Source: a virus (Duplodnaviria; Caudoviricetes). From it: DNA of 42,052 nucleotides. The notes beneath the pieces were generated by a model. The model was not told the DNA's origin. It did not search any database and was given only the letters and a program-made list of their open reading frames with translations. Location: the IMG/VR virus record IMGVR_UViG_3300015370_000517, positions 1 through 42,052 of that record; one strand, 5' to 3'. Both the position numbers and the translations under genes were made by a program. Below are positions 1-40,733 of the stretch, in pieces (the first letter of the stretch is position 1; the number at the start of each line of letters is the position of its first letter).

Positions 1-682
1 GACTGACAATCTTATCATGACCGCAAGATTATTAGACGCGTGCGCGCTAAGACGAATTAAAAAGTTTGTGTTCGTGAGCAGTAGTACAGTGTATCCGTTA
101 ATGACTCAATCATGCAGTGAGGATGATGCTAATGTGCGAGAATATTATCCGTTATATTCTGGTGTTGGACGAATGAAAAAATATCTTGAAGAACTTTGCG
201 AGTTCTATCGAGAAAAATATGATATGGACGTCCTGATTGTTCGCCCTGCGAACATGTACGGTCCTAATGATAAGTTTCATGGTGGCGGTCATGTTATACC
301 AATGCTTATAAAAAAAGCATTTGAAGAAACAGTTCTTGAAGTTTGGGGGGACGGTAATACCATTCGAGACTTCACATACGTTGATGACATTGCACGTATT
401 ATTCTTCGTTTAATCGAAATAGAAAATATTACAGCTCCGATAAACGTGTCATGCTCTGAGCAGTATAGTATTGCACAAGCAGCAAAAATTGTTCAGTCGT
501 TATACAGTCCTGAAAAATTATTAGTGTACTCTCCATCTAAACCGAATGCTATACCGTATCGGGTATTAAACACGAACCGATTAAAAAGTTTGATAGGAGA
601 TTACCAGTTCACACTATTAAAGGAAGGATTAGAAAAAACAATACAATGGTACAAAGAGAACTACACGGAAGAGCACCGCTAA
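1..682 (+). CDS. NAD-dependent epimerase/reductase (extended SDR, GDP-fucose-synthase-like), 5'-truncated by the window edge
   Basis: Motifs FVFVSSSTVYP, VRPANMYGPND and VWGDGNTIRDFTYVDD. The frame is open from the window start and the Rossmann GxxGxxG is absent, so it lies upstream. Confidence 0.85.
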   Translation, partial: TDNLIMTARLLDACALRRIKKFVFVSSSTVYPLMTQSCSEDDANVREYYPLYSGVGRMKKYLEELCEFYREKYDMDVLIVRPANMYGPNDKFHGGGHVIPMLIKKAFEETVLEVWGDGNTIRDFTYVDDIARIILRLIEIENITAPINVSCSEQYSIAQAAKIVQSLYSPEKLLVYSPSKPNAIPYRVLNTNRLKSLIGDYQFTLLKEGLEKTIQWYKENYTEEHR

Positions 683-1593
683 GAATAAGCTTTGCTGGTG
701 GTGGAACAGACTTAGAATCTGTGTTTTTAAAACATGGAGGTACAGTAATCAATGCGACTATCGCACAACATACGAATATGACAATCAAGCAACGTGACGA
801 CTCGAAGATTTTTGTTAACACCGTTCCTTTAGAAAATGCTGATGTGTTAACTCAAAATATTATTTCTAAAATACTTCCGCCTACAGGCCTGGATATAACA
901 TACACGAATGATGTTCCTCCTCGCAGAGGACTTGGTAGTTCTTCAACGTACTCTGTCTTGTTAACCCGCATGATTAATGAATTGTGTGGACGTTCTATTA
1001 ACGACACAGACGTTGTTGAGCAAGCGTACAATATAGAGTCTGACCTTGGTATTTGTGGCTGGCAGGACCAGTACGCTGTGGCTTTTGGTGGTTTTAATTA
1101 CATGCAATTTTCTAAAGAGCAAAGACTCGTTTTTCCTTTGCGTATTAAGTATAGCACGATTAGAGAGTTAGAGTCGAGTTTGTTGTTAAGTTTTACTGGA
1201 GGAAGTCATGATAGTTATGCTATTAAGAATGTGTATGATGATAGGTCTGTTGGCGAACTAAAATCTCTTGCGAATATGGTTCGTGACGCATTATTGCACG
1301 ATGACGTTCCTGCTATCGGTCATCTTCTGCATACGGCGTGGGAGGTAAAACAGAGAACGCTATCTAACAATAACATATTTAATGACATATACCGTTATTG
1401 GCAAGGACAAGGTGTCACGGGAGGAAAACTTTTAGGAGCTGGAGATGGCGGTTACTTTTTGTTTTTTGTTCCTCCAAACATCAGGTATAAAGTTGAAGAA
1501 CAAATGAGAGCGAAAGGAAGTGTTGCAGTTCCTATTTATTTTACTGATAAAGGGGTTGAAACGTGGACGCCGAAAAAGGAGAATAATATATAA
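646..1593 (+). CDS. GHMP-family sugar kinase, HddA-like (D-glycero-D-manno-heptose-7-phosphate kinase-like)
   Basis: RAPLRISFAGGGTD, PPRRGLGSSS (GHMP ATP loop), GWQDQYAVAFGG, GGKLLGAGDGG. Confidence 0.88.
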   Translation: MVQRELHGRAPLRISFAGGGTDLESVFLKHGGTVINATIAQHTNMTIKQRDDSKIFVNTVPLENADVLTQNIISKILPPTGLDITYTNDVPPRRGLGSSSTYSVLLTRMINELCGRSINDTDVVEQAYNIESDLGICGWQDQYAVAFGGFNYMQFSKEQRLVFPLRIKYSTIRELESSLLLSFTGGSHDSYAIKNVYDDRSVGELKSLANMVRDALLHDDVPAIGHLLHTAWEVKQRTLSNNNIFNDIYRYWQGQGVTGGKLLGAGDGGYFLFFVPPNIRYKVEEQMRAKGSVAVPIYFTDKGVETWTPKKENNI

Positions 1594-1594
1594 A

Positions 1595-2707
1595 ATGGGA
1601 TTTAAAAAGGGAAATACTTTTGGAAAAATTAATGCAAATCGTAAAAGACTAGATGTATCTATAAGAATGAAACAGGATAATCCAATGCAAGATAAAAAGA
1701 ATATTCAAAAAATGATTAATACTGTTAATAAAAAAATACAAGAAGGATGGGTTCACAAAGGACGATATTGTCCGGGAATGATTGGGACAAATACTGGAAA
1801 ATCATTTAATGCTTTGCATAGGAAAAAACTGAGTGAATCTAATAAAGGCAAACATATTAATAAGACAAATAATGAAAAAAATGGAAATTGGAAGGGTGAT
1901 AACGTCAATTATTCGGCATTACATGCGTGGGTTAAAAGAAAATTAGGTAATGTGAATAAATGTTATATATGTTCTGAAAGTAATAAAAAAATTCAGTTGG
2001 CAAATATTTCTGGAGAATACAAACGGGATTTGATGGATTGGACTTGTTTATGTCAGTCATGCCATTACAAGTTTGATAGGAAAATTCCATTGCTTTCTAA
2101 AGATGATTTAATTGATTTTGAGAATAATATAGTTAACTTATATCTTCATAAAAAGATTCGAAGTCCTATTCATCTATCTGGGGGTAACGAGGCACAGATA
2201 ATAAAAATTTTTAATTTAATTAATAAGGACGATATTATTTATACAACTTATAGAAGTCATTATGATTCATTATTACATGGTGTTAGCAAAAAGTGGTTGA
2301 TTAAGTGGATATTAAAAAATAAATCAATACATGTTCATCACAAAAATCCTGATATTTTAAGTTCTGCTATAGTTGGCGGGACAATTCCATTAGCTATTGG
2401 GATGGCATTGGGTGTTAAATTAAATGGGAACCAAAGAAGAATATGGTGTATGATTGGGGATATGACTGCGACAACTGGGGTATTTTGGGAGGGGTATAAT
2501 TATGCATTACGAAATGATTTACCTATAGTTTTCGTTATCTCTGATAATGGATTATCAACAGATACTCCAACAAAATGTGCATGGGGAATGAAAATATCTG
2601 ATAAGCATTGGTTTGAAGAAAGGCCACTTCCAAAACTAATTTATTATAAATATGAGCGAACCAGACCGCACTACGGATGCGGAAAATTTGTGGAGTTCGA
2701 CAAATGA
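1595..2707 (+). CDS. In-frame fusion: NUMOD3/HNH-like homing endonuclease (about aa 1-165) plus TPP-dependent dehydrogenase E1 alpha-like subunit
   Basis: ATG at 1595 follows AAGGAG. The N-part has NWKGDNVNYSALHAWV..CYIC..LANISGEYKRD..LCQSCH. The C-part has PIHLSGGNE, YRSHY, SAIVGG and the TPP motif GDMTATTG..SDN. Confidence 0.8.
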   Translation: MGFKKGNTFGKINANRKRLDVSIRMKQDNPMQDKKNIQKMINTVNKKIQEGWVHKGRYCPGMIGTNTGKSFNALHRKKLSESNKGKHINKTNNEKNGNWKGDNVNYSALHAWVKRKLGNVNKCYICSESNKKIQLANISGEYKRDLMDWTCLCQSCHYKFDRKIPLLSKDDLIDFENNIVNLYLHKKIRSPIHLSGGNEAQIIKIFNLINKDDIIYTTYRSHYDSLLHGVSKKWLIKWILKNKSIHVHHKNPDILSSAIVGGTIPLAIGMALGVKLNGNQRRIWCMIGDMTATTGVFWEGYNYALRNDLPIVFVISDNGLSTDTPTKCAWGMKISDKHWFEERPLPKLIYYKYERTRPHYGCGKFVEFDK

Positions 2708-3234
2708 AAACATATAAAGAATTACTGATAGATACGATGACGTTACTTGCGAAAGATAAAAGGACGTTATTCATCGGGCAAAGTGTTCTTTTTCCGGGTC
2801 ACGCGTTATACAATACGATTAAACACTTACCTGAGGGGAAGAGGATTGAGATGCCAGTCTGTGAAGAGTTACAAACTGGTATTTGCACGGGTCTAGCACT
2901 TCAAGGGTTTATTCCAGTAAGTATTTATCCGCGTATGGACTTTTTGATATGTGCGACAAACCAGATAGTTAATCACTTAGACAAGATTGAAGAAATGAGC
3001 AGTGGCGAGTTCAAGCCAAAGGTTATCATACGAACGGCGATAGGTAGTAATAAACCATTAATGCCGGGGTGCCAACATAATCAGGATTATACAGAAGCAC
3101 TCGTTAAGATGTTAACGAACGTTGACGTGGTCAAATTAACCAATAAAGAAATGATAATACCAGAATACGAAAAGGCATTAAAGTCTAAACGGTCGACTAT
3201 CTTGATTGAACTGCCGGAGTTGTATGACAAATGA
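2704..3234 (+). CDS. TPP-dependent E1 beta / transketolase pyrimidine-binding subunit (short)
   Basis: FIGQSV, IEMPVCEELQTGICTGLAL, QIVNHLDK, GCQH. ATGA overlap with the alpha subunit. Confidence 0.85.
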   Translation: MKTYKELLIDTMTLLAKDKRTLFIGQSVLFPGHALYNTIKHLPEGKRIEMPVCEELQTGICTGLALQGFIPVSIYPRMDFLICATNQIVNHLDKIEEMSSGEFKPKVIIRTAIGSNKPLMPGCQHNQDYTEALVKMLTNVDVVKLTNKEMIIPEYEKALKSKRSTILIELPELYDK

Positions 3235-3620
3235 GAAAAAGAATAGTACACCAATACATGCCTGTTGACATGCATGAAGATTCCAGAAGAAGACTCTCAA
3301 TATTTTTTAATGGAGACTTTATTGCAAAACAAATAAAAATAATTGAAGTAATAGAAGATGATGCCATTCTCGGAAATCATTACCATACGTACGACGAAGC
3401 ATTTTATGTAGTTAAGGGCTGTGCAAACTATGACGTGTATGATTTAAAGACTAAAAAATATGCAAATTTTGTTTTGGTGCGCGGAGAATCATTGTTTATT
3501 AAAGCGCACACTGCGCATCGGGCTACTTTTAATAGAGGAACGATAATGGTAGAAGCAACGTCAGAGAAACACACAAAAGAAAAGACGAGGAAATGGGATA
3601 AATGGCAAAAAATACGATAA
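3231..3620 (+). CDS. Cupin-fold protein (sugar epimerase/isomerase-like, RmlC/WxcM-type)
   Basis: HEDSRR, GNHYHTYDEAFYVVKG and AHTAH cupin motifs; sugar cluster context. Confidence 0.75.
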   Translation: MRKRIVHQYMPVDMHEDSRRRLSIFFNGDFIAKQIKIIEVIEDDAILGNHYHTYDEAFYVVKGCANYDVYDLKTKKYANFVLVRGESLFIKAHTAHRATFNRGTIMVEATSEKHTKEKTRKWDKWQKIR

Positions 3621-4606
3621 GTTTAATTACCGGAATTGGAGGTTTTGTAGCATCACACCTTGCTCGTTACCTTCTTGAACAAGGAGAAGAAGTTTATGGA
3701 ACGTACCGGTGGAACGAAGACCTTTCACGAATCAAAGACATCAAAGATAAAATTCATATGATTCCAATGGATTTATTAGATATGAAAAGCTGTATAAAAG
3801 CAATCAGGATTGCAAATCCGAATTATATTTTTCACCTTGCCGCACAATCATACGTATCCGATAGTTTTGAATACCCAGAAGTAACTATACAAACAAATAT
3901 GATTGGAACCTATCATATATTAGAAGCCGTGAGAGGATTAAAGGACGTAGCAAGATACATGAATTCCGCGTCAACCTTCAACCCAGTGATTCATGTTTGT
4001 AGTAGCAGCGAAGTATATGGTCAGGTTACTCCTGACGAAGTTCCTATCAAAGAAACGAACCAGTTCAGACCGGCGAATCCATATGCGGTGAGTAAAGTTG
4101 GAGCTGATATGATTGCTTATCAGTATTGGACGTCTTTTGGTTTAAAAATAATCAGGACGCGCATGTTTACTCACGTAGGTGATGGGAGAACAATGGATAG
4201 TGCTGAAAATGCTTTTGCAAAACAAATAGTTAGAATTGAATTAGGATTGCAATCTCCTGTTGTTTATCATGGAAACTTAAATAGTGTAAGAACATGGGCA
4301 GATGTACGAGATGCAGTAGAAGCTTATCATGTACTTGTTCGCAAATGTACTCCAGGAGAAGTTTATAATATAGGAGGGACCACAACAAAAACTATTGGGG
4401 AGATGCTTGATTATTTAATATCTATAAGTACTTGTAAAAAAATTACTAAAAAATTAAATACCGAATTATTACGTCCGTCAGATGTTACTCTTCAGATTCC
4501 TGATTGTTCAAAATTTATTAAACAAACAGGATGGGCACCTAAATATACTTTTGAAGAAACAATAAGCAGTATTCTTAATGGTTGGAGAAGGAGGGAGAAC
4601 GTATGA
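3602..4606 (+). CDS. GDP-mannose/GDP-manno-heptose 4,6-dehydratase (Gmd/DmhA/WcbK-like)
   Basis: ITGIGGFVASHL, FHLAAQSYV, SSSEVYG, PYAVSK (YxxxK), TRMFTH, GNLNSVRTWADVRD, LRPSD. Confidence 0.88.
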   Translation: MAKNTISLITGIGGFVASHLARYLLEQGEEVYGTYRWNEDLSRIKDIKDKIHMIPMDLLDMKSCIKAIRIANPNYIFHLAAQSYVSDSFEYPEVTIQTNMIGTYHILEAVRGLKDVARYMNSASTFNPVIHVCSSSEVYGQVTPDEVPIKETNQFRPANPYAVSKVGADMIAYQYWTSFGLKIIRTRMFTHVGDGRTMDSAENAFAKQIVRIELGLQSPVVYHGNLNSVRTWADVRDAVEAYHVLVRKCTPGEVYNIGGTTTKTIGEMLDYLISISTCKKITKKLNTELLRPSDVTLQIPDCSKFIKQTGWAPKYTFEETISSILNGWRRRENV

Positions 4607-5427
4607 AAAGAATCCTGGTGACCGGCGCTTCTGGTATGATAGGACAAGAACTCATTGAATTATTGACGAAAAGAAAAAACGATATTATCATACATGGCGA
4701 TATAAAAAATGGTGATGACCTAACGGACTTTCAAACATGTATGAACTTGTGTGAAGGTGTTGATGAATGTTACTCATTGATTGGTATAAAGGGGTCGCCG
4801 AAGATGACAAAAGAAAGACCGGTCGACTTTATGGTTCCAATGTTACGATTTGACACGAATATGATTTATGCAGCACAACTTCAAGGTGTGAAGAAGTTCT
4901 TATATACGTCTAGTATTGCTGTAGAAAATCCTAAGACGGACATGTACCCTGCATGGGCGAAGATGACGGCAGAAAAATTGATAGAGGCAATGCGTGTACA
5001 ATTTACTAAAGGGACAAAATATTGTGTCGTGCGCCCTGCTAATGTGTACGGTCGTTTTGATAATTTTGATAATCCTAATGCTATGGTCATAACTTCTCTT
5101 TTTAAAAAATCATTAACACAACCGTGTATTGAAGTGTGGGGTGATGGCTCTCAAGTTCGAGACTTCATTCACGCTAAAGACGTTGCTCGTGGTATGATAG
5201 AGACGATGCGGAAGATGCCTGAATATCCTATTAATTTGTGTAGTGGCAAAGGAGTTTCAATAAAAAGTGTTGCTTCTATCATTGCAGGATTATCCAACAA
5301 AAAAATACGTTTCGTTGGAAAGGCAGTTGGTGATAAGCGACGTGTGATGAGAACAAACGGGTTCAAACCACAGATAAGCATTCATGATGGATTAAAGGAA
5401 GTGTACGAATGGATAAAAGTGAGGTAA
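4603..5427 (+). CDS. NAD-dependent epimerase/reductase (extended SDR)
   Basis: ILVTGASGMIG, VRPANVYG, VWGDGSQVRDFIHAKDVA. ATG at 4603 overlaps the upstream stop. Confidence 0.85.
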   Translation: MKRILVTGASGMIGQELIELLTKRKNDIIIHGDIKNGDDLTDFQTCMNLCEGVDECYSLIGIKGSPKMTKERPVDFMVPMLRFDTNMIYAAQLQGVKKFLYTSSIAVENPKTDMYPAWAKMTAEKLIEAMRVQFTKGTKYCVVRPANVYGRFDNFDNPNAMVITSLFKKSLTQPCIEVWGDGSQVRDFIHAKDVARGMIETMRKMPEYPINLCSGKGVSIKSVASIIAGLSNKKIRFVGKAVGDKRRVMRTNGFKPQISIHDGLKEVYEWIKVR

Positions 5428-5436
5428 TGATATAAA

Positions 5437-6558
5437 ATGAAAAAGAAAAACGCTATAGTTATTACGACAATAAACACGCCATTAATATTGGACAATCTTG
5501 GCAAGAACCTAGTTAAATACAACCACGAAGATGACACAAGCATTATAATAATCGGCGATAAAAAAACACCAAAAGACATCGTATCATACTGCGAGCGTAT
5601 TAAGAAAAAATATGGGATAGACATAGAATATTATGGGATTAGCGAACAAAAGAAAACATTCGCCAAACATAGCAAGTTATTAAACTTGTTTCCATACAAT
5701 CATCCTGACAGAACCATCTTAGGTCATTGTCTAGCGTACATGGACGGGTACGAAAGAACAATAGCGCTAGATGATGACAACTTTCCTGTTGATTGCGATT
5801 TTATTGGTCATCATGCCATAACAGGAACGACCTCGACGGTAAGTTTAATCCGTAATGGTCTAGGATGGTTTAACGTGCACTCTGCACTAGATGAGATGAA
5901 CAAGATACCGTTCTACCCGAGAGGTTACCCGTGGAGTAAAAGGTGTGATAAGGCGAACGAGAAAAGAATGTTTAAGGATAAAAGAAAGGTGATAGTTAAT
6001 CAAGGACTCGTGCTGGAAGACCCGGACGTTGACGCCATAACCAGACTGTTTCATCCGATAAGGGCAACGTCTATGAACAAAACGTTTAGTGCACAATTCG
6101 GATTATTTCCTGGAGTGTGGTCACCGTTCAACTTCCAGAATACATGTCTCGCTAGAGAATTAATCCCGGTTTATTACAGACCTCTTTCTACTAAGAGAAA
6201 TGCTGACATTTGGACTGCGTACTTGATAAATAGGCTGGCAGAACATTTTGGTGATGTCATAACGTTTGGATACCCGTTGGTTAAGCAGATTAGGAATGAG
6301 CATAACTTATGGGATGACTTGGACGTGGAACTAATTAATAATAGAGCGACTGACGATTTTGTTTCTATACTAAGAAGTATCAAAATAAGAGGAGATACCT
6401 ATTTTGAATTGCTAGGAAGTTTACTGAAACAGAGTAGTATGCACTTAAAAAAAACAAAAACGAGTACTCCAGAGTCTGAAATGATTAAAAATTATTTTAG
6501 AGAGTACAAAATCTGGTATGAAATAATAGGAGAGATTGTTCACGATGGCAAATATTAA
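5437..6558 (+). CDS. GT-A fold protein, RGP/UDP-arabinopyranose mutase- or STELLO (DUF288)-like
   Basis: IVITTIN, IGDKKTP, LDDDNFP, PRGYP, QGL..DPDVDAI, SPFNFQNT, RNADIW. Confidence 0.7.
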   Translation: MKKKNAIVITTINTPLILDNLGKNLVKYNHEDDTSIIIIGDKKTPKDIVSYCERIKKKYGIDIEYYGISEQKKTFAKHSKLLNLFPYNHPDRTILGHCLAYMDGYERTIALDDDNFPVDCDFIGHHAITGTTSTVSLIRNGLGWFNVHSALDEMNKIPFYPRGYPWSKRCDKANEKRMFKDKRKVIVNQGLVLEDPDVDAITRLFHPIRATSMNKTFSAQFGLFPGVWSPFNFQNTCLARELIPVYYRPLSTKRNADIWTAYLINRLAEHFGDVITFGYPLVKQIRNEHNLWDDLDVELINNRATDDFVSILRSIKIRGDTYFELLGSLLKQSSMHLKKTKTSTPESEMIKNYFREYKIWYEIIGEIVHDGKY

Positions 6559-7549
6559 GAGTGGGATGAAAGACCCGAAGATAAAACTTCTCAGGTATAT
6601 GGATAGAGTTCAAGGAGTGATGGATAAAAACTTTCTTCCTCCTATCATAGCGGACGTTGACGTAGTTCAAGGTTTATGCAATCTTGATTGTGAATGGTGC
6701 TGCCAACGAGTAAGCAGGGAAAATAAGTCTCCCTTGTTCATGACGAAAGAAACCATGGAACAGATGGGACCATTCTGTAAGGAGTGGGGTGTGAAGTCTT
6801 GGAGGATAGCCGGAGATTCAGAACCAACATTAAACAAGAATTTATCAGTATTATTACAATCAGGACATGATAACGGTATTGACATGGGATTAATAACGAA
6901 CGGCACATGCCTTGACACGGTTAATAACTTACAATATCTTACTTGGATTGGAATAAGTTTTGATGCTGCAACTCCTGAGACGTGGAGTAAATTAAAACAT
7001 TCATCCGAGGCGATGTATTGGAGAATAATAAACAGCATTAAGCATATTCGTAAAAACTATCCGGATGTTGAAATCACACTAAAATTCATAAAATATTCGT
7101 CAAATGATGCTATGAATAGGACGGAACAAAAGGCGAAAAAGTTTTATGACGAATTACAAGAGGTTAATAATTATAAGGATGCAGAATTATTACCAAAGTT
7201 AGCGGATGAGCTGGAAGTGAATTACCATATTATTGACGCGTTCACTAAAAATCCTAAGTACAAATTTGACGTGTGTAGGGCGACTCCTCTTTATGCAACT
7301 TTCGGTGCAGACCACAAATTTTATGTTTGTTGTGATAGAAGGTACGGACCGATTCTTACAGAAGATTATACAAAGGATGATTGGAAAGAACTCACAAGAT
7401 TATGGGGTTCTGACATGCACAAAAAAATAATTGATAACATACGACCTACTACATGCTTGTTTTGTTCAAAAGAATGGCTGAACACGGTAATGGAAAACGT
7501 GATGCTTGACGGAAAGCACTCAAAAGAATATCAAGTGAAGTTCATATAA
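6545..7549 (+). CDS. Radical SAM protein with C-terminal Cys-rich (Twitch/SPASM-like) region
   Basis: CNLDCEWC (CxxxCxxC), GDSEP, ITNG, ISFDA, and C-terminal C..CC..CLFC. Confidence 0.85.
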   Translation: MANIKSGMKDPKIKLLRYMDRVQGVMDKNFLPPIIADVDVVQGLCNLDCEWCCQRVSRENKSPLFMTKETMEQMGPFCKEWGVKSWRIAGDSEPTLNKNLSVLLQSGHDNGIDMGLITNGTCLDTVNNLQYLTWIGISFDAATPETWSKLKHSSEAMYWRIINSIKHIRKNYPDVEITLKFIKYSSNDAMNRTEQKAKKFYDELQEVNNYKDAELLPKLADELEVNYHIIDAFTKNPKYKFDVCRATPLYATFGADHKFYVCCDRRYGPILTEDYTKDDWKELTRLWGSDMHKKIIDNIRPTTCLFCSKEWLNTVMENVMLDGKHSKEYQVKFI

Positions 7550-7550
7550 G

Positions 7551-8255
7551 ATGGAAACAGAATTAGAAAAAATTACTTTCGTATTAGTAGCGCATAATAG
7601 TATGCCGCACATACAAGCAACCATTAATAGCTTAGTAGAAAGTACAAGATACCCATTCAAATTAATCATTGTTGAATCAGAGTCTGTTGACGGAACAAAA
7701 GAATACGTTGATTATTTATCTAGAATTTCAAACGATATAAGCGTGATACATACTAAAAAGGAGGGAACAATACGGGCGTTTAATATTGGAATAAGAAATG
7801 CGGAAAAAGATAATCATATATTTTTGTGCCATGATGACACATATTTTTTTAAATGGTATGCAAAGGATTGGCTACATGAATTTATGAATCTACTTAAAAA
7901 CGATTCTTCTGTTGGAATAATAATGCCTTTAAGCGGTGGTGGAACTTCCGGTCCTGAGTATATAGACAAATTTGTTTGGGCAGGAACATGGTCTACTCTG
8001 ATTAGAAAAGAAGCAATTGAAAAATTGGGTAAAGAAATGCTTTTTGATGAAAATTTCGGTAAGGGGTACGGGGACGACATTGATTTAAGTTATAGAATTG
8101 TCAAAGAAGGATTTAATATTCTTTCAACGTGGTTTTGGATAGACCATCATAGATTGACAGAACACCACAATAATGACGATATATTGGTGGAAGATGTGAA
8201 GAAAAAGAACTCGGAATATTTTAGAAAAAAACATAAACTAGGTGAATTTGCATGA
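7551..8255 (+). CDS. Glycosyltransferase family 2
   Basis: LVAHN, IIVESESVDGT, HDD, FDENFGKGYGDDIDLSYR. Confidence 0.85.
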   Translation: METELEKITFVLVAHNSMPHIQATINSLVESTRYPFKLIIVESESVDGTKEYVDYLSRISNDISVIHTKKEGTIRAFNIGIRNAEKDNHIFLCHDDTYFFKWYAKDWLHEFMNLLKNDSSVGIIMPLSGGGTSGPEYIDKFVWAGTWSTLIRKEAIEKLGKEMLFDENFGKGYGDDIDLSYRIVKEGFNILSTWFWIDHHRLTEHHNNDDILVEDVKKKNSEYFRKKHKLGEFA

Positions 8256-9148
8256 AAAAGATAGCAGTTAATATAGCAACTCGTGATAGGCCAACAGAAC
8301 TCTCGCTCTTGTTACAAAGTTTGAGAACGCAAACGGTTCAAGATTTTGATGTTTTCATTCTTGAAGATTGTAGCGGAACACCACTGTTTAATTATCATTT
8401 TTTAGTCTGTCTTATTAACAAGTTAAAGGATGAAGGGCACATTGTTGATATTGAACGAACGCCGTTTAATTATGGTGTGAGTAAGTCACGACAAGCGTTG
8501 GTTGACAAGAGCAAACAGTATGAGTTAATATTGCGTGCTGATGATGATGTCATTCTCGAATCTGATTATATAGAAAGATTGTTAAGCGTGTTGGATGCGG
8601 GTTATGACCTGGCGAGCGGGGTTACTCCTTTTATTGGTCAACCGCAAGTTAAAAGGGAGACAAGGTTTATTCATCCTGTCGGAAACAAGGTAGTATTTGA
8701 CAAGGATGGAAATTTCGTGTATAACGGCGATGATTGTGGAATGCAATATTATGATGACACTATTCTTCCATTGCACCACTTTAGAAGTTGCGCATTATAC
8801 AAGACGAAAATACATGACGTTATTGATTATAAATCGAGCTTGTCAAAGCATGGTTTTAGGGAAGAACAAATTTTTAGTTTTAAAATGATTCTTGCAGGCT
8901 TCAAACTTGGCATGAGTTCTCAAGCAGTAGCATGGCATTTGCTTACTCCGAGTGGTGGTGAACGTTTTAGTAATCAAGGAGATTTGATACGGTTGAACCA
9001 GCAAATCTTTGAGGAGTGGACGACGAAGACGTTTAAAGAACACGGCGATTTTATTAAAAAGTATAACGATTTGTTAAGCATTGTTGTTGACAAACCGTCT
9101 GATGTTGAGTGCATGAAAGAGTCAAATTTGGCAAAGGTGAGAGTATGA
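8252..9148 (+). CDS. Glycosyltransferase family 2
   Basis: IATRDRP, LQSLRTQT, RADDDVIL (DxD), FREE. Confidence 0.82.
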   Translation: MKKIAVNIATRDRPTELSLLLQSLRTQTVQDFDVFILEDCSGTPLFNYHFLVCLINKLKDEGHIVDIERTPFNYGVSKSRQALVDKSKQYELILRADDDVILESDYIERLLSVLDAGYDLASGVTPFIGQPQVKRETRFIHPVGNKVVFDKDGNFVYNGDDCGMQYYDDTILPLHHFRSCALYKTKIHDVIDYKSSLSKHGFREEQIFSFKMILAGFKLGMSSQAVAWHLLTPSGGERFSNQGDLIRLNQQIFEEWTTKTFKEHGDFIKKYNDLLSIVVDKPSDVECMKESNLAKVRV

Positions 9149-9420
9149 AGGAACTTAAAACGCTTGCTGACATAAATCATATGTGTTGTTGTGGAAATTC
9201 TCCCCAGCATGATATGGCTATTCGTGATGATTTACGTGCCGAAGCGATTAAAGATATAAAACATATTAGAGAAACACATTTTGTTCCATGTAGGGGTGTC
9301 AAAGGGTCGACATGGTGCATGCCTGTGGGCAACGGTCTTGGAGAAGATACTGAAGCTATGTGGGCTGTGGTAGAATATATTGCTTGGAAGTTTAATATTT
9401 CTGAGGAGGACTTAAGATGA
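9145..9420 (+). CDS. Small hypothetical protein, ELKTL...LRAEAIK...FNISEE family (paralog of 38919-39185)
   Basis: AGGTGA RBS, ATGA overlaps at both ends, three motifs shared with the paralog. Confidence 0.7.
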   Translation: MKELKTLADINHMCCCGNSPQHDMAIRDDLRAEAIKDIKHIRETHFVPCRGVKGSTWCMPVGNGLGEDTEAMWAVVEYIAWKFNISEEDLR

Positions 9421-10505
9421 AAATTAATGTTATTGGACAAATATTTGGAACCAGCGGGTACGCATCACACACTAAACAACTAGCAAGAGCATTATATGAT
9501 ATTGCTGACGTAAAACTTTCTTCTCAAATACCCGGCGGGTTTGAGAAAGAGTTAAGCGATGAGGAGTTATTAATGCTCAAAAAACCAGATGGTAAAGACA
9601 GGATTAACATTATTATTGGTTTTCCTCATTCGTGGTCTCAATTTTGTGATAGGGAGAATAATGTTGGGTTTCTAATTTGGGAGGGTGATAGGATACCGAA
9701 GGATTGGATGGATTGTTGTGCGAATCTGATGATTAAGCAAGTGTGGGTTCCTAGCGTTCACACGAAGGATGCTATTCTTGAAACGTTGAAGGATTATCCT
9801 AATACGAGCGCGGTTGTTGTTCCGAAGATTCGTATTGTTCCTCATGGTGTTAATCTTGACCTTTTTTATCCTGTAGAAAAGCCTGGCATGCCAATAACGT
9901 TCGTTTGTAATAAGGGGTTCAGAAACGTTGAAGACCGAGGTGGCATACAATACGCCATACAGGCGTTTTTGAACGAGTTCCCAGAAGGTCAAGGAAAACT
10001 ATTAATCAAACTAAATAGTGCGTATAGCATTGATTTAGGAGGCTTTAATGCCATTATGAGCCAGTTGGGCGTTAAGAGTAGGTCGGATGTCATACTAAAC
10101 ACCCAAAATATAGACTATAAATCCATGAACTTACTCTACGCACAAGGACACATCCTACTAAATCCCGTACGGGCAGAAGCATTCAGTATTCCATGCGCGG
10201 AAGCAATGGCGTGCGGGCTTCCAGTAATAACGACGAATTATGGTGGACAAACAGACTTCGTAACAAACGAGAACGGATGGCTAGTAGATTACGACCTTGA
10301 AGAAGTAAAACATGAGATAATGTACGAGGGAGTAAGATGGGCAACACCACAACTCGCATCATTACAAAAAGCAATGCGGGAAGCTGCGGACAATTATGAA
10401 CTGCGAAAAAAGAAGTCAGAACAAGCAATAAAAGACATTCAAGAGTGGACGTGGAAGAAGTCCGCAGAAAAAGCGGTCAATTTCTTGAACGAAATTATTG
10501 CTTAA
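9417..10505 (+). CDS. Glycosyltransferase family 4 (GT-B)
   Basis: SGYA, VWVPS, VPHGVN, EAFSIPCAEAMACGLPVITTNYGG (E-x7-E). Confidence 0.9.
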   Translation: MKINVIGQIFGTSGYASHTKQLARALYDIADVKLSSQIPGGFEKELSDEELLMLKKPDGKDRINIIIGFPHSWSQFCDRENNVGFLIWEGDRIPKDWMDCCANLMIKQVWVPSVHTKDAILETLKDYPNTSAVVVPKIRIVPHGVNLDLFYPVEKPGMPITFVCNKGFRNVEDRGGIQYAIQAFLNEFPEGQGKLLIKLNSAYSIDLGGFNAIMSQLGVKSRSDVILNTQNIDYKSMNLLYAQGHILLNPVRAEAFSIPCAEAMACGLPVITTNYGGQTDFVTNENGWLVDYDLEEVKHEIMYEGVRWATPQLASLQKAMREAADNYELRKKKSEQAIKDIQEWTWKKSAEKAVNFLNEIIA

Positions 10506-36392: not shown

Positions 36393-36443
36393 AAATATAT
36401 TTTTTGTTATTTATAAATTTTATTATATAGTTTATATAAACTA
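36393..36443 (-). promoter_or_regulatory. 51-bp repeated promoter: 16-bp palindrome plus TATA box (portal operon)
   Basis: Palindrome 36428-36443, TTTATAAA 36410-36417, portal ATG at 36377 with no SD. Confidence 0.8.
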
Positions 36444-37841
36444 CAATATTTTATACAATTCAGCACTCTGCATGCGAGATGCTGGTCGCCAGTACCATGC
36501 TGCAAGTGCAAGCGCGTCACAATTGTGAACAAGAATGTTGTTTGCAAAGTACTCATTCGCATCTTCAATCTTAAGATTGTATACTCTTTCTAAGATGATG
36601 CCTTTGTGAATATTCTGCGTTTTTTCCTGATTCTTTAAGATGTCTTTTGTAGCATTCTTTTGAGCAATATTTCGAAGTTGTTCTTCTTGTTGAAAGATAT
36701 GTTTTTTTGCAGATAGTACAAATATGTCTGTCTTTTCTGTATAATTTTTCTCGCATTTTTTCATAATGTTTTTTATGCCATTCTCTTCCAATGGATGATT
36801 TGTGCCATTCCTTTGCTTTTTCTCGTGCATACTTTTTAAGGTTCTTTGCAGATTCTTTTTTTCTTTCTGGATGATTTGCATGATTTGATTGGTGTATTGA
36901 CCTTTGAATACATTCAAGATTGTCAATATTGTTGTGAAAGGTGTTTTCGTCTTTGTGGTGGATGACACATCCTTCTGGTATTTTTCCTCTATTGTCTTCC
37001 CAGATTTGACGGTGCAATGATTTTGGTGATTCCTTCCACTTGTCATGCTTCCAAAAGTATACTCGAAGCTGTCTTCTCTTTGATTGTGGATATCGGTGAT
37101 ATACCCTTCCATTATACGTGATTGTTTCTCGTTCCATATGTATGTTGTATCTGATGCATTCAAGTTTATAAATGTTACTATACCTTTTTTCGTTATAAAC
37201 GGGTGGTCTGGTGTTCCAGTTAATCCCCACCTAGTTATTACCTTTCCAGTATGATATCCACAACTAACCACTTTTTTATATCCTTTCCGTGTCAAAACCA
37301 TATCACCTGGACGAATGTCTTCTATATTGATTTGCCCTTTATTCGTCAATATTTTCGTTCCTGCTACAAAACAATAATCATCGTGACCTCTATTACTATG
37401 ATGAATCTTCATTTCTCCACTACTACCAAATTCGTATCGTAAGTCCATAAGTTGAAACAATAATTTTTTGTGATTTGGCAAGTGCAACCCGCCAGGTTTC
37501 CCTTTTGCTCGTGTTTCCAATAATCGTCGTAAATTCTGATAAATATCCTGTTTTGTTCTGACGGTGAATGTCATGCCTTCTATTTTATAGCCTAATTGTT
37601 CTTTTAATACATCTGTCGGCCCACTGCCAAGTCCTGTTTGGTCAAGAAATATTTTGTCAAACTTGAACTTGTCATCCAATGCTTTAATGCGTCCTATCGC
37701 ATCAGTAAGAAGTTTGTGTTGTGTCTCATGCACAAACTTGACATATAATTCATTTTGTAATTCTTCAATTACTATCATGACAGTACTATCCTGTCCTAAT
37801 CGTGCAAAGTCAACTCCTAATGCTATCTTTTTTTGTATCAC
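36441..37841 (-). CDS. terL: Terminase large subunit, nuclease (RNase H-like) domain only, with an intein
   Basis: LGVDFARLGQDSTV, DQTGLG, HDDY|intein|CDALALA. No ATPase domain; in-frame TAA 10 nt upstream of the GTG. Confidence 0.85.
   Translation of the reverse strand: MIQKKIALGVDFARLGQDSTVMIVIEELQNELYVKFVHETQHKLLTDAIGRIKALDDKFKFDKIFLDQTGLGSGPTDVLKEQLGYKIEGMTFTVRTKQDIYQNLRRLLETRAKGKPGGLHLPNHKKLLFQLMDLRYEFGSSGEMKIHHSNRGHDDYCFVAGTKILTNKGQINIEDIRPGDMVLTRKGYKKVVSCGYHTGKVITRWGLTGTPDHPFITKKGIVTFINLNASDTTYIWNEKQSRIMEGYITDIHNQREDSFEYTFGSMTSGRNHQNHCTVKSGKTIEEKYQKDVSSTTKTKTPFTTILTILNVFKGQYTNQIMQIIQKEKKNLQRTLKSMHEKKQRNGTNHPLEENGIKNIMKKCEKNYTEKTDIFVLSAKKHIFQQEEQLRNIAQKNATKDILKNQEKTQNIHKGIILERVYNLKIEDANEYFANNILVHNCDALALAAWYWRPASRMQSAELYKIL
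36571..37137 (-). CDS. HNH homing endonuclease nested out of frame inside the terminase intein
   Basis: LHRQIWE..GKIPEGCVIHHKDENTFHNNIDNLECI..H; C-terminal CTIC..YCSKEC zinc finger; ATG 37137. Confidence 0.85.
   Translation of the reverse strand: MERETITYNGRVYHRYPQSKRRQLRVYFWKHDKWKESPKSLHRQIWEDNRGKIPEGCVIHHKDENTFHNNIDNLECIQRSIHQSNHANHPERKKESAKNLKKYAREKAKEWHKSSIGREWHKKHYEKMREKLYRKDRHICTICKKTYLSTRRTTSKYCSKECYKRHLKESGKNAEYSQRHHLRKSIQS
37165..37180 (-). promoter_or_regulatory. Putative internal TATA-box promoter for the nested HNH gene
   Basis: TAGTAACA-TTTATAAA ending 27 nt before ATG 37137. Confidence 0.55.
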
Positions 37842-40155: not shown

Positions 40156-40733
40156 AGTCCTCCAAAAGCATCTCTTACCCTATCTTGAACGCCTTCAGCA
40201 TACCCATCATTATACCCGTTCTTATACTCGGGATGATGGATGTTACCACTGGGAAATCCGCTACTCTTCTTTTTCTCCTTTGCTTCATGTAATTTTATGA
40301 GTTGTTTGCAGCACCACCTATCACCCATACAATCATAACCAAGACTATGGCATATATCACAGTGTTCACCCATATCTCCCAAGTATCCGAATGGAAGACC
40401 GCCAGATTTCTTTTCTTTCTTCCAGACGAAGCGGCCATTGAGGTCGATGCTGTTGTAGCCGCTGAGGCCGTGATAGTAGTCGTGGCCCGCAAACGGGACA
40501 CGCCCGCCCATCTCATAAAACTTTTTCAAATCCTTAAACTCTTCAACAGTTCCTTGCCGGAATTCTCCTTCAAAAGACACGGTAGAGCTATCACACCAAA
40601 CGTTAGGAATAATCTTACTTTTCCTCAAAGTCCACACTTCTTTCAAGCTCAAAGGCAGACAATTATACTTCCGAAAACCTTTATCAAAAGCTTCTTGCAA
40701 CGTATCACCTTCAATAATATCGTACTCAATCAT
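40152..40733 (-). CDS. Protein with an internal DGR-like variable region
   Basis: GRVPFAGHDYYHGLSGYNSIDLNGRFV encoded by a GC-rich NNC codon run; GGAGG RBS. Confidence 0.6.
   Translation of the reverse strand: MIEYDIIEGDTLQEAFDKGFRKYNCLPLSLKEVWTLRKSKIIPNVWCDSSTVSFEGEFRQGTVEEFKDLKKFYEMGGRVPFAGHDYYHGLSGYNSIDLNGRFVWKKEKKSGGLPFGYLGDMGEHCDICHSLGYDCMGDRWCCKQLIKLHEAKEKKKSSGFPSGNIHHPEYKNGYNDGYAEGVQDRVRDAFGGL

Follow-up and report, generated by a model that had tools for sequence, protein, structure and literature searches.

Inteins that carry an endonuclease gene out of frame with their splicing domain have been described in several systems. An out-of-frame, intein-encoded HNH endonuclease was published in 2015 for the terminase of brucellaphages (PMC4422536). 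Gosselin, Arsenault, and Gogarten (10.1101/2025.01.02.630785) reported actinobacteriophage inteins whose DNA carries an endonuclease VII-like gene in frame 3, for which they proposed an origin in free-standing endonucleases invading inteins. Phillips, DeSimone, and Gogarten (10.64898/2026.09.14.751524) reported a cyanobacterial dnaX intein with an out-of-frame LAGLIDADG endonuclease, putative Shine-Dalgarno motifs, no in-frame form found, and a broad, sporadic distribution. In addition, leaderless initiation has been proposed for the HNH gene of the ShiLan insertion (PMC11855218), and an intein with an in-frame HNH_3 domain has been described (PMC6293099). Here we analyzed a 42,052-nucleotide (nt) stretch of tailed-virus DNA (Duplodnaviria; Caudoviricetes; IMG/VR record IMGVR_UViG_3300015370_000517, positions 1 to 42,052; hereafter the window), in which a terminase gene is interrupted by an intein whose DNA also encodes an HNH endonuclease in the -1 frame. 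This terminase intein and its intact overlapping HNH gene are real.

The interrupted gene is a 466-amino-acid (aa) open reading frame (ORF; 37841-36441, minus strand, as are all features of the locus) with PHROG terminase matches, which encodes the nuclease domain of the large subunit, contains no ATPase domain, and would be reduced to 182 aa by predicted splicing. Its N-extein (37374..37841) ends in HSNRGHDDY and its C-extein (36441..36521) begins with CDALALAAWYW, that is, with Cys+1 followed by a conserved Asp; the 284-aa intein between them (37373-36522) gives the junctions HDDY/C...HN/CDALAL. The insertion is precise with respect to an intein-free allele (P0001; 184 aa, 80% identical), in which HDDYCDALAL is uninterrupted. 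The intein has the residues of class 1 inteins (C1, T54xxH57, a VYNL block F, and H283-N284 before Cys+1), of which C1, T54, H57, and N284 are invariant in all 60 aligned inteins. Hint_2 is the sole Pfam match of its frame (E 3e-8), and an NCBIfam scan added nothing beyond a weak intein C-terminal match. A Hint fold is predicted by AlphaFold for the N-terminal splicing region (aa 1-79; 37138..37373) and the C-terminal splicing blocks F and G (36522..36596), with a predicted local distance difference test score (pLDDT) of 92-98 over aa 1-80 and 94-98 in the C-terminal blocks (at least 92 over aa 261-284); among solved structures, the model matches the gp41-1 intein (Foldseek E 1e-5).

The middle of the intein is occupied by a 188-aa ORF (37137-36571) with its own ATG and its own TAA, the latter inside block F. 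The ATG lies 236 nt past the intein start (2 mod 3), which places the gene in the -1 frame relative to the intein. Its product matches HNH_3 (PF13392, above cut-off; E 9e-13) and contains an HNH catalytic core (H42...H60 H61...N69 N73...H82; 36892..37014) and a C-terminal Cys4 finger (C140, C143, C158, and C162; 36652..36720) that probably binds zinc. H60, H61, N69, N73, and H82 as well as the four cysteines are invariant in 37/37 aligned HNH proteins of the family, and the beta-beta-alpha-metal motif is intact. Read in the intein frame, the same DNA gives a filler peptide (intein aa 80-268; 36572..37136) with no Pfam match and a pLDDT mostly below 60. Both frames are free of stops over 567 nt at a GC content of 34%, and the HNH frame stays open for a further 31 codons upstream of the ATG, to 37230, including a GTG. 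The initial annotation, made from the sequence alone, had described a zinc-finger HNH nuclease in the -1 frame within an intein that has intact splicing blocks and no endonuclease motif of its own; the HNH_3 match, the Pfam results, and the invariant motifs bear this out.

We then compared the locus with the described systems. In fractured genes (PMC2677866), too, an endonuclease gene that brings its own expression signals lies between two intein halves, and its 3' end likewise overlaps the C-terminal intein coding region; in those cases the intein frame is interrupted, with trans-splicing, and the endonuclease is GIY-YIG or Vsr-like rather than HNH. In the window the intein frame is unbroken within one continuous ORF, unlike the two ORFs of a split intein or fractured gene, and it contains no endonuclease domain of the kind found in a canonical full intein. 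A continuous intein frame with a nested same-strand ORF that has its own start and stop, together with the frame-dependent selection given below, is what characterizes the out-of-frame class. Within this class, brucellaphage Tb (PMC4422536; JN939331 ORF7/ORF8) is similar in having a terminase intein with an out-of-frame HNH. As described there, the Tb intein lies in the ATPase domain (GNRAD/C...HN/CVIIDD), uses the +1 frame, and has zinc motifs before a C-terminal HNH core, whereas the present insertion lies in the nuclease catalytic helix, uses the -1 frame, and has an N-terminal HNH_3 core with a C-terminal Cys4 finger. BLAST comparison of the Tb HNH and this HNH gave no significant match (best E 1.0).

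The inteins of Gosselin et al. share with this one the same strand, the same frame (frame 3 equals -1), a continuous intein frame, and an unstructured middle, and differ in encoding an endonuclease VII-like protein; they are termed rare in that report, whereas at least 112 representatives at 90% identity were found here. All 37 HNH proteins of the present family match HNH_3 and none matches an endonuclease VII family, and no Gordonia phage is among the 22 matched phage records. The main text of that preprint does not mention "promoter", "TJE1", or "nuclease domain". The dnaX intein has a similar +2 (equal to -1) overlapping ORF with its own start and a frame-dependent ratio of nonsynonymous to synonymous substitution rates (dN/dS); it differs in its LAGLIDADG endonuclease and its location in a cellular replication gene, and "promoter" does not occur in the accessible text of 10.64898/2026.09.14.751524. 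The ShiLan insertion also places an out-of-frame HNH in an open host frame, that of a phage methylase, yet has no splicing domain and, according to the report, occupies a non-essential gene (PMC11855218). Judged by its sequence, the element thus fits the out-of-frame intein class and belongs to neither its endonuclease VII nor its brucellaphage family. The suggestion in the initial annotation that the class itself might be undescribed does not hold, such inteins being already in print (PMC4422536; 10.1101/2025.01.02.630785; 10.64898/2026.09.14.751524). In the literature covered, which took in few subscription journals and excluded preprint supplements that could list members, we found no description of this I-HmuI-like family, of insertion in the nuclease helix, or of embedded promoters.

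The two reading frames are maintained in different ways. When the HNH protein was held fixed and its codons were drawn from contig usage, stops were absent from the intein frame in 115 of 200,000 draws, with a mean of 5.2 stops per draw (P = 6e-4). Of the Leu, Ile, and Val codons in the window's HNH gene, NTA forms make up 0 of 8 that precede a purine and 6 of 14 that precede a pyrimidine. The same pattern was observed across the family: before a purine, NTA accounts for 0/1329 such codons in nested genes and 122/309 in free-standing homologs, and before a pyrimidine for 468/1361 and 96/256, respectively. The zero in nested genes follows from the openness of the intein frame; the contrast with free-standing genes reveals how this openness is achieved. 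None of 20 free-standing homologs is open in the intein-type frame (mean 9.05 stops, against 25.4 in the other frame), which rules out openness as an inherent property of HNH codons. The -1 frame is likely preferred as the cheap one, because it presents fewer stops (approximately 9 vs. 25), nearly all of which can be removed synonymously by avoiding NTA before a purine.

Substitution patterns were examined in 12 disjoint pairs of relatives, the window itself having no close partner. The HNH frame has a dN/dS of 0.22, compared with 1.19 for the filler read in the intein frame, where a value near or above 1 is expected from the overlap alone; substitutions at HNH codon positions 1/2/3 number 134/97/308. 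In relatives, dN/dS is 0.17 in the first 45 intein codons, 0.03 in the C-terminal splicing blocks, and 0.14 in the extein. Therefore, both the splicing and the nuclease functions appear to be maintained and the filler peptide does not. A function of the filler is unsupported: its near-invariant G125 is dictated by HNH W46, whose TGG reads as GGN off frame, and a predicted helix at intein aa 150-190 (pLDDT 64-91) was given no weight. Dual coding under selection, as had been proposed for this DNA, is thus borne out by the recoding draws, the codon avoidance, and dN/dS, with constraint in the HNH frame and stop avoidance alone in the intein frame.

To investigate the distribution of this layout, we scanned viral, metagenome, genome, and phage collections with HNH-seeded searches and classified 201 sequences, window included. 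The row of the window's own contig (L144) and 18 weak and 6 truncated free loci were dropped, as was L138 (no start), and the free-standing set excludes L084, L143, L150, L153, L174, and L184. Both intein ends flank the HNH gene in 129/201 loci, all of which share the frame relation of the window; the intein frame is open throughout in 128 of them, the exception being the phiCD119 record. An HNH in the intein's own frame was found in none of these 129 automatically classed loci. Manual inspection of 17 odd loci added seven of the same kind and four in the other off-frame. At 90% HNH identity the family comprises 108 representatives in the -1 frame, 4 in the +1 frame, and 20 free-standing (67 in the -1 frame at 50% identity). 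Cultured carriers include the phages Highwayman, phiCDHM19, TJE1, and LS06-2018-MD07, in which the HNH gene is unannotated beneath a single terminase or Hint annotation, and an extrachromosomal element of Halobacterium sp. GSL-19 carries the same layout under a terminase or Hint annotation. A viral scan with the N-extein only gave no matches.

Several lines of evidence suggest that the HNH gene is expressed independently of the terminase, as had been predicted for this locus. These analyses used the 100 representatives (of 108) whose start was clear, eight with doubtful starts having been dropped; promoter motifs were sought in the 72 nt upstream of the start in 90 cases. The HNH gene starts with ATG in 95/100 and with ATG, GTG, or TTG in all 100 kept, and in-frame stops occur no more than 5 codons upstream in 63/100 and no more than 10 codons upstream in 85/100. 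The motifs used were the consensus motifs of sigma70, Bacteroidota, and TATA-type promoters. At least one of the three is present in 60/90 cases, compared with 14 in synonymous shuffles. Sigma70-like promoters were found in 46/90 (synonymous shuffles: mean 7.9, maximum 15; extein windows: 14/415), and the Bacteroidota-type TAnnTTTG in 18/90 (mean 4.5, maximum 10). Synonymous divergence (dS) in the 72 nt leading up to the HNH start is reduced to 0.11, compared with 0.26-0.32 in the flanking splicing regions. A TAnnnT stands exactly at -12 in 19/100 relatives, including most of the window's nearest intein relatives, which is the geometry expected of a leaderless transcript. The last ~25 codons of the N-terminal splicing region may double as the HNH promoter region.

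In the window itself, TTTATAAA is present at 37172-37165 (-35..-28 from the HNH ATG, 27 nt before it), exactly as had been noted, and is a candidate TATA box at the position where relatives have their sigma70 -35 hexamer. An archaeal TATA box lies ~23-30 nt upstream of the transcription start. TACAAC (37144..37149, at -12..-7) is the degenerate counterpart of the relatives' TAnnnT -10 box. The other two intein-bearing members of the same terminase clade (L048 and L231) are likewise without the -10 consensus; at -35..-28 they have CTTATAAA and TTTATGAA, and the window and these two share YTTATRAA there. Loss of the -10 consensus in this clade favors the TATA reading, and the pattern, seen in three related sequences only, would fit a bacterial promoter converted to a TATA box. 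In the Halobacterium copy no clear TATA box was seen by eye, and that copy does not support host-tuned promoters. An RNA run (X8) gave no contig over the element and was counted as uninformative. The internal promoter proposed by the initial annotation is thus supported at the level of the family by motif enrichment, whereas its archaeal TATA identity in this copy is not established. The annotation had also likened the box to the virus's other promoters: three of the seven copies of TTTATAAA do belong to an intergenic element that recurs ahead of structural genes (intergenic DNA makes up 3.5% of the contig), whereas the total is within chance (7 vs. 3.6 expected; 11/100 shuffles reach 7). This AT-rich element of ~55 nt with AAATTTATAAA is repeated at 36441-36390, 28270-28215, and 23720-23680 (minus strand), upstream of the portal, protease, and 23625 genes, and is likely a late promoter.

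The HNH protein itself resembles a homing enzyme. I-HmuI is intron-encoded and nicks DNA. Residues 7-91 of the HNH structure model (mean pLDDT 90) have I-HmuI (PDB 1u3e) as their best structural and profile match (profile E 5e-4; Z 6.6, root-mean-square deviation 3.1 over 78 aligned residues; Foldseek E 0.2); Foldseek returned no match of the model at E of 0.001 or below. I-HmuI has Asp and Asn where this protein has H60 and H82, and the match contains no counterpart of its long helix or Cys4 finger.

The element is likely mobile. The intein is absent from 45 of 46 close terminase relatives, and the exception, L231, shares both the insertion site and the hidden HNH; 13 intein-free proteins from a length-limited search, which is blind to intein-bearing forms, were not used as a frequency. 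Close inteins occur in distant exteins: L001 shares 66% identity in the splicing region and 50% in the HNH with 25% in the extein, and L002 shares 56%, 46%, and 12%, respectively. Insertion points cluster near the conserved D/H-x-x-D helix, occupying at least four positions no more than five codons from it (~50, 37, 5, and 3 of 105, with 10 unassigned and a few boundaries mis-picked). A FastTree phylogeny of 121 HNH proteins (four loci dropped) revealed that free-standing and nested forms interleave, with 11 changes, at least six of them forced by well-supported branches; the tree does not tell their direction.

Taken together, we consider it probable that this is a two-part element, a class 1 intein with a -1 nested HNH gene that is expressed from its own promoter and ATG and whose product would cut empty alleles to spread the insert. 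Translation of the terminase message would give a precursor in which the filler of ~190 aa protrudes as a loop from the Hint fold, to be lost once splicing occurs. A short or leaderless transcript starting near 37142-37137 at the intein-embedded promoter would supply the HNH, translated from its own ATG. The enzyme would then nick or cut intein-free DNA coding for the terminase catalytic helix, and recombination would copy the whole insert into the empty allele. The sequences themselves show the anatomy of the locus, its conservation in the family, the selection on the two frames, and the existence of empty alleles; splicing, the transcription start, cleavage, homing, and timing are steps that we infer.

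Different explanations of the locus were weighed against this two-part reading. An assembly artefact, or a canonical in-frame HNH intein that was recently frameshifted, might be suspected from the frameshifts in the related phiCD119 record and from the existence of in-frame HNH_3 inteins (PMC6293099). However, the overlap is covered by contigs of runs X1, X3, X2, and X7 from three studies with 0 substitutions and 0 gaps (the evidence being contigs and not raw reads, with X1 and X2 possibly the window's own source runs), which rules out the compensating indels that the initial annotation had named as a refutation; moreover, the layout recurs in 108 divergent representatives, no automatically classed locus is in frame, and stop avoidance is visible at the codon level. 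This explanation is already refuted. Another route to the HNH would be -1 ribosomal frameshifting on the terminase message, producing an extein-IntN-HNH fusion, and both the 31 open codons upstream of the window's ATG and the uniform -1 relation of the 129 loci would suit it. It is nevertheless highly improbable: slippery heptamers are at background in relatives (6/100 vs. 4.6 expected) and absent from the window, the nearby upstream stops in most relatives would close such a frame, start codons are present in all loci kept once the eight doubtful ones had been removed, the other frame occurs in four representatives, and promoter motifs are enriched. A frameshift signal for the HNH was accordingly rejected.

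More weight attaches to the question of whether the window's own TTTATAAA box works. It might be a decayed -35 box or a chance product of the codons F-I-N, in which case the HNH would be made by internal initiation on terminase mRNA or barely expressed, an outcome compatible with a mobile family. The chance-level count of the 8-mer, the degenerate -10 element, and the unproven host domain all point this way, whereas the shared YTTATRAA of the window, L048, and L231, all without a -10 consensus, and the occurrence of the same 8-mer in the virus's repeated intergenic element speak against it; we regard an inactive box as rather unlikely. The HNH protein might also be a domesticated cofactor of terminase packaging and not a homing enzyme, a role like that of HK97 gp74. 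In this regard, five free-standing homologs in cultured phages adjoin terminase genes, the HNH is under purifying selection, and a packaging-cofactor role has been suggested for brucellaphages (PMC4422536). Yet nearly all close terminase relatives lack the intein (nearby unrelated HNH genes were not looked for), the closest structure is that of the homing enzyme I-HmuI, and close inteins sit in unrelated exteins, which makes domestication improbable.

Several observations weigh against the two-part mobile element. Splicing, expression, and cleavage are deduced from sequence for the whole family, which weakens the case. HNH-seeded searches may undercount in-frame, decayed, or mini-intein forms. 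The promoter rules were set after the sequences had been viewed, 30/90 relatives have none of the three promoter motifs, TATA-type boxes are not enriched (5/90 vs. 2.9 expected), and the -10 consensus of the family's sigma70 promoters is missing from the window. The match to I-HmuI is modest by profile, Z score, and Foldseek alike. Pairwise identities of the HNH and the splicing region correlate weakly (Spearman 0.23 over 91 elements, without seven named exclusions and loci with short N-exteins), not above the correlation of either with the extein; therefore the two parts have not always traveled together. Many empty alleles have Pro, Val, or Ala rather than Cys at +1, and homing there would therefore need co-conversion. 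Finally, two loci are broken. In L138 the HNH is interrupted by a nonsense codon close to its start while the intein frame is undamaged, which fits what a homing cycle would predict of a decayed HNH, and the phiCD119 record (L056, NC_007917) is broken in both frames.

Some members of the family deserve separate mention. The L138 contig (L138/L285, 2896-3543) is binned to a Woesearchaeota metagenome-assembled genome (MAG), and its HNH is likely a decayed copy. In the phiCD119 record terL is split into two genes by frameshifts inside the intein, the near-identical phiCDHM19 being intact; either sequencing error or decay could account for this. Among the four +1-frame elements (L033, L103, L112, and L115), three form no single clade with the fourth (two changes in the tree). 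L107 (2705-3598) has an HNH of the same family whose intein is inserted at the Walker B site of the ATPase (IIIVDDP/C) and not in the nuclease helix. A close HNH homolog in L150 (3966-4535), and likewise in L153, has an intein-like upstream motif and an open +1 frame without intein blocks; it interrupts an aminotransferase-like gene, presumably DegT-like, in a sugar cluster, and is possibly an escapee from an intein.

The window is a 42-kb tailed-virus fragment with portal, protease, HK97-type capsid, and tail genes downstream of the terminase on the same strand; it has no terminal repeat and extends past 42052 in another assembly, a record of run X2 reaching ~4.9 kb beyond that point. A related-domain profile detected no ATPase domain in the contig, and the place of an ATPase gene upstream of the terminase ORF is taken by at least 4 kb of small ORFs. 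In close relatives the ATPase is fused or encoded by an adjacent upstream gene (e.g., L203, L204, and L224; L215 has an ORF between). The split between ATPase and nuclease looks natural, since the intein-free, nuclease-only P0001 starts at the same residue as the window's terminase ORF. An archaeal host is plausible but unproven: GAGGTGA-type ribosome sites and intergenic motifs resembling the general TATA consensus occur in the virus group, and one capsid homolog (74%) is named from a Thaumarchaeota/Nitrososphaerota MAG, whereas the capsid protein had no match in 401 genomes of one archaeal phylum (that of G001).

Other features of the window were also recorded. A second intein (12039-11083, minus strand; 319 aa, HDY/C...GN/S) with an in-frame LAGLIDADG-like domain lies in a metallophosphoesterase gene (12537-10621), and canonical and out-of-frame inteins therefore coexist in one genome. 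Free-standing endonuclease genes are present among the tail genes at 17242-16667 (HNH) and 21690-20926 (NUMOD3 and PD-(D/E)XK-like), both on the minus strand. A terminator-like hairpin (38085-38020, minus strand; near-perfect 19-bp stem, 27-nt loop, z -5.7, then a T run) precedes a 67-aa Cys-rich ORF (38013-37810). The left end (1-10505, plus strand, opposite to the structural genes) is a sugar-nucleotide/glycosyltransferase cluster with GDP-mannose dehydratase, GHMP kinase, transketolase-like, radical SAM, GT2, and GT4 genes. At 40167-40267, at the end of ORF 40763-40152, runs X6 and X7 carry a variant that has 11 nt in place of 99 nt.

We tentatively propose, as a possibility and not yet as the favored view, that out-of-frame nesting is a stable strategy rather than a rare passing step toward a canonical intein. 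A large I-HmuI-like HNH family in terminase inteins would never fuse in frame, and would have its promoter written into splicing-domain codons and re-tuned to the host (leaderless sigma70, sigma70 with Shine-Dalgarno, Bacteroidota TAnnTTTG, and archaeal TATA in this clade) while crossing between bacterial and archaeal viruses. The HNH might repeatedly have moved in and out of inteins, and the intein might have shifted between four or more sites, all no further than five codons from the active-site helix of the nuclease. A layout that has been termed rare is common in uncultured viruses, with more than 100 related elements, and hidden from annotation. With free-standing, -1 nested, and +1 nested states in one HNH family, the question of how inteins acquired endonucleases becomes testable. 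A single sequence that would serve as splicing-domain code, promoter, and second gene offers a clean natural case with a measurable codon signature.

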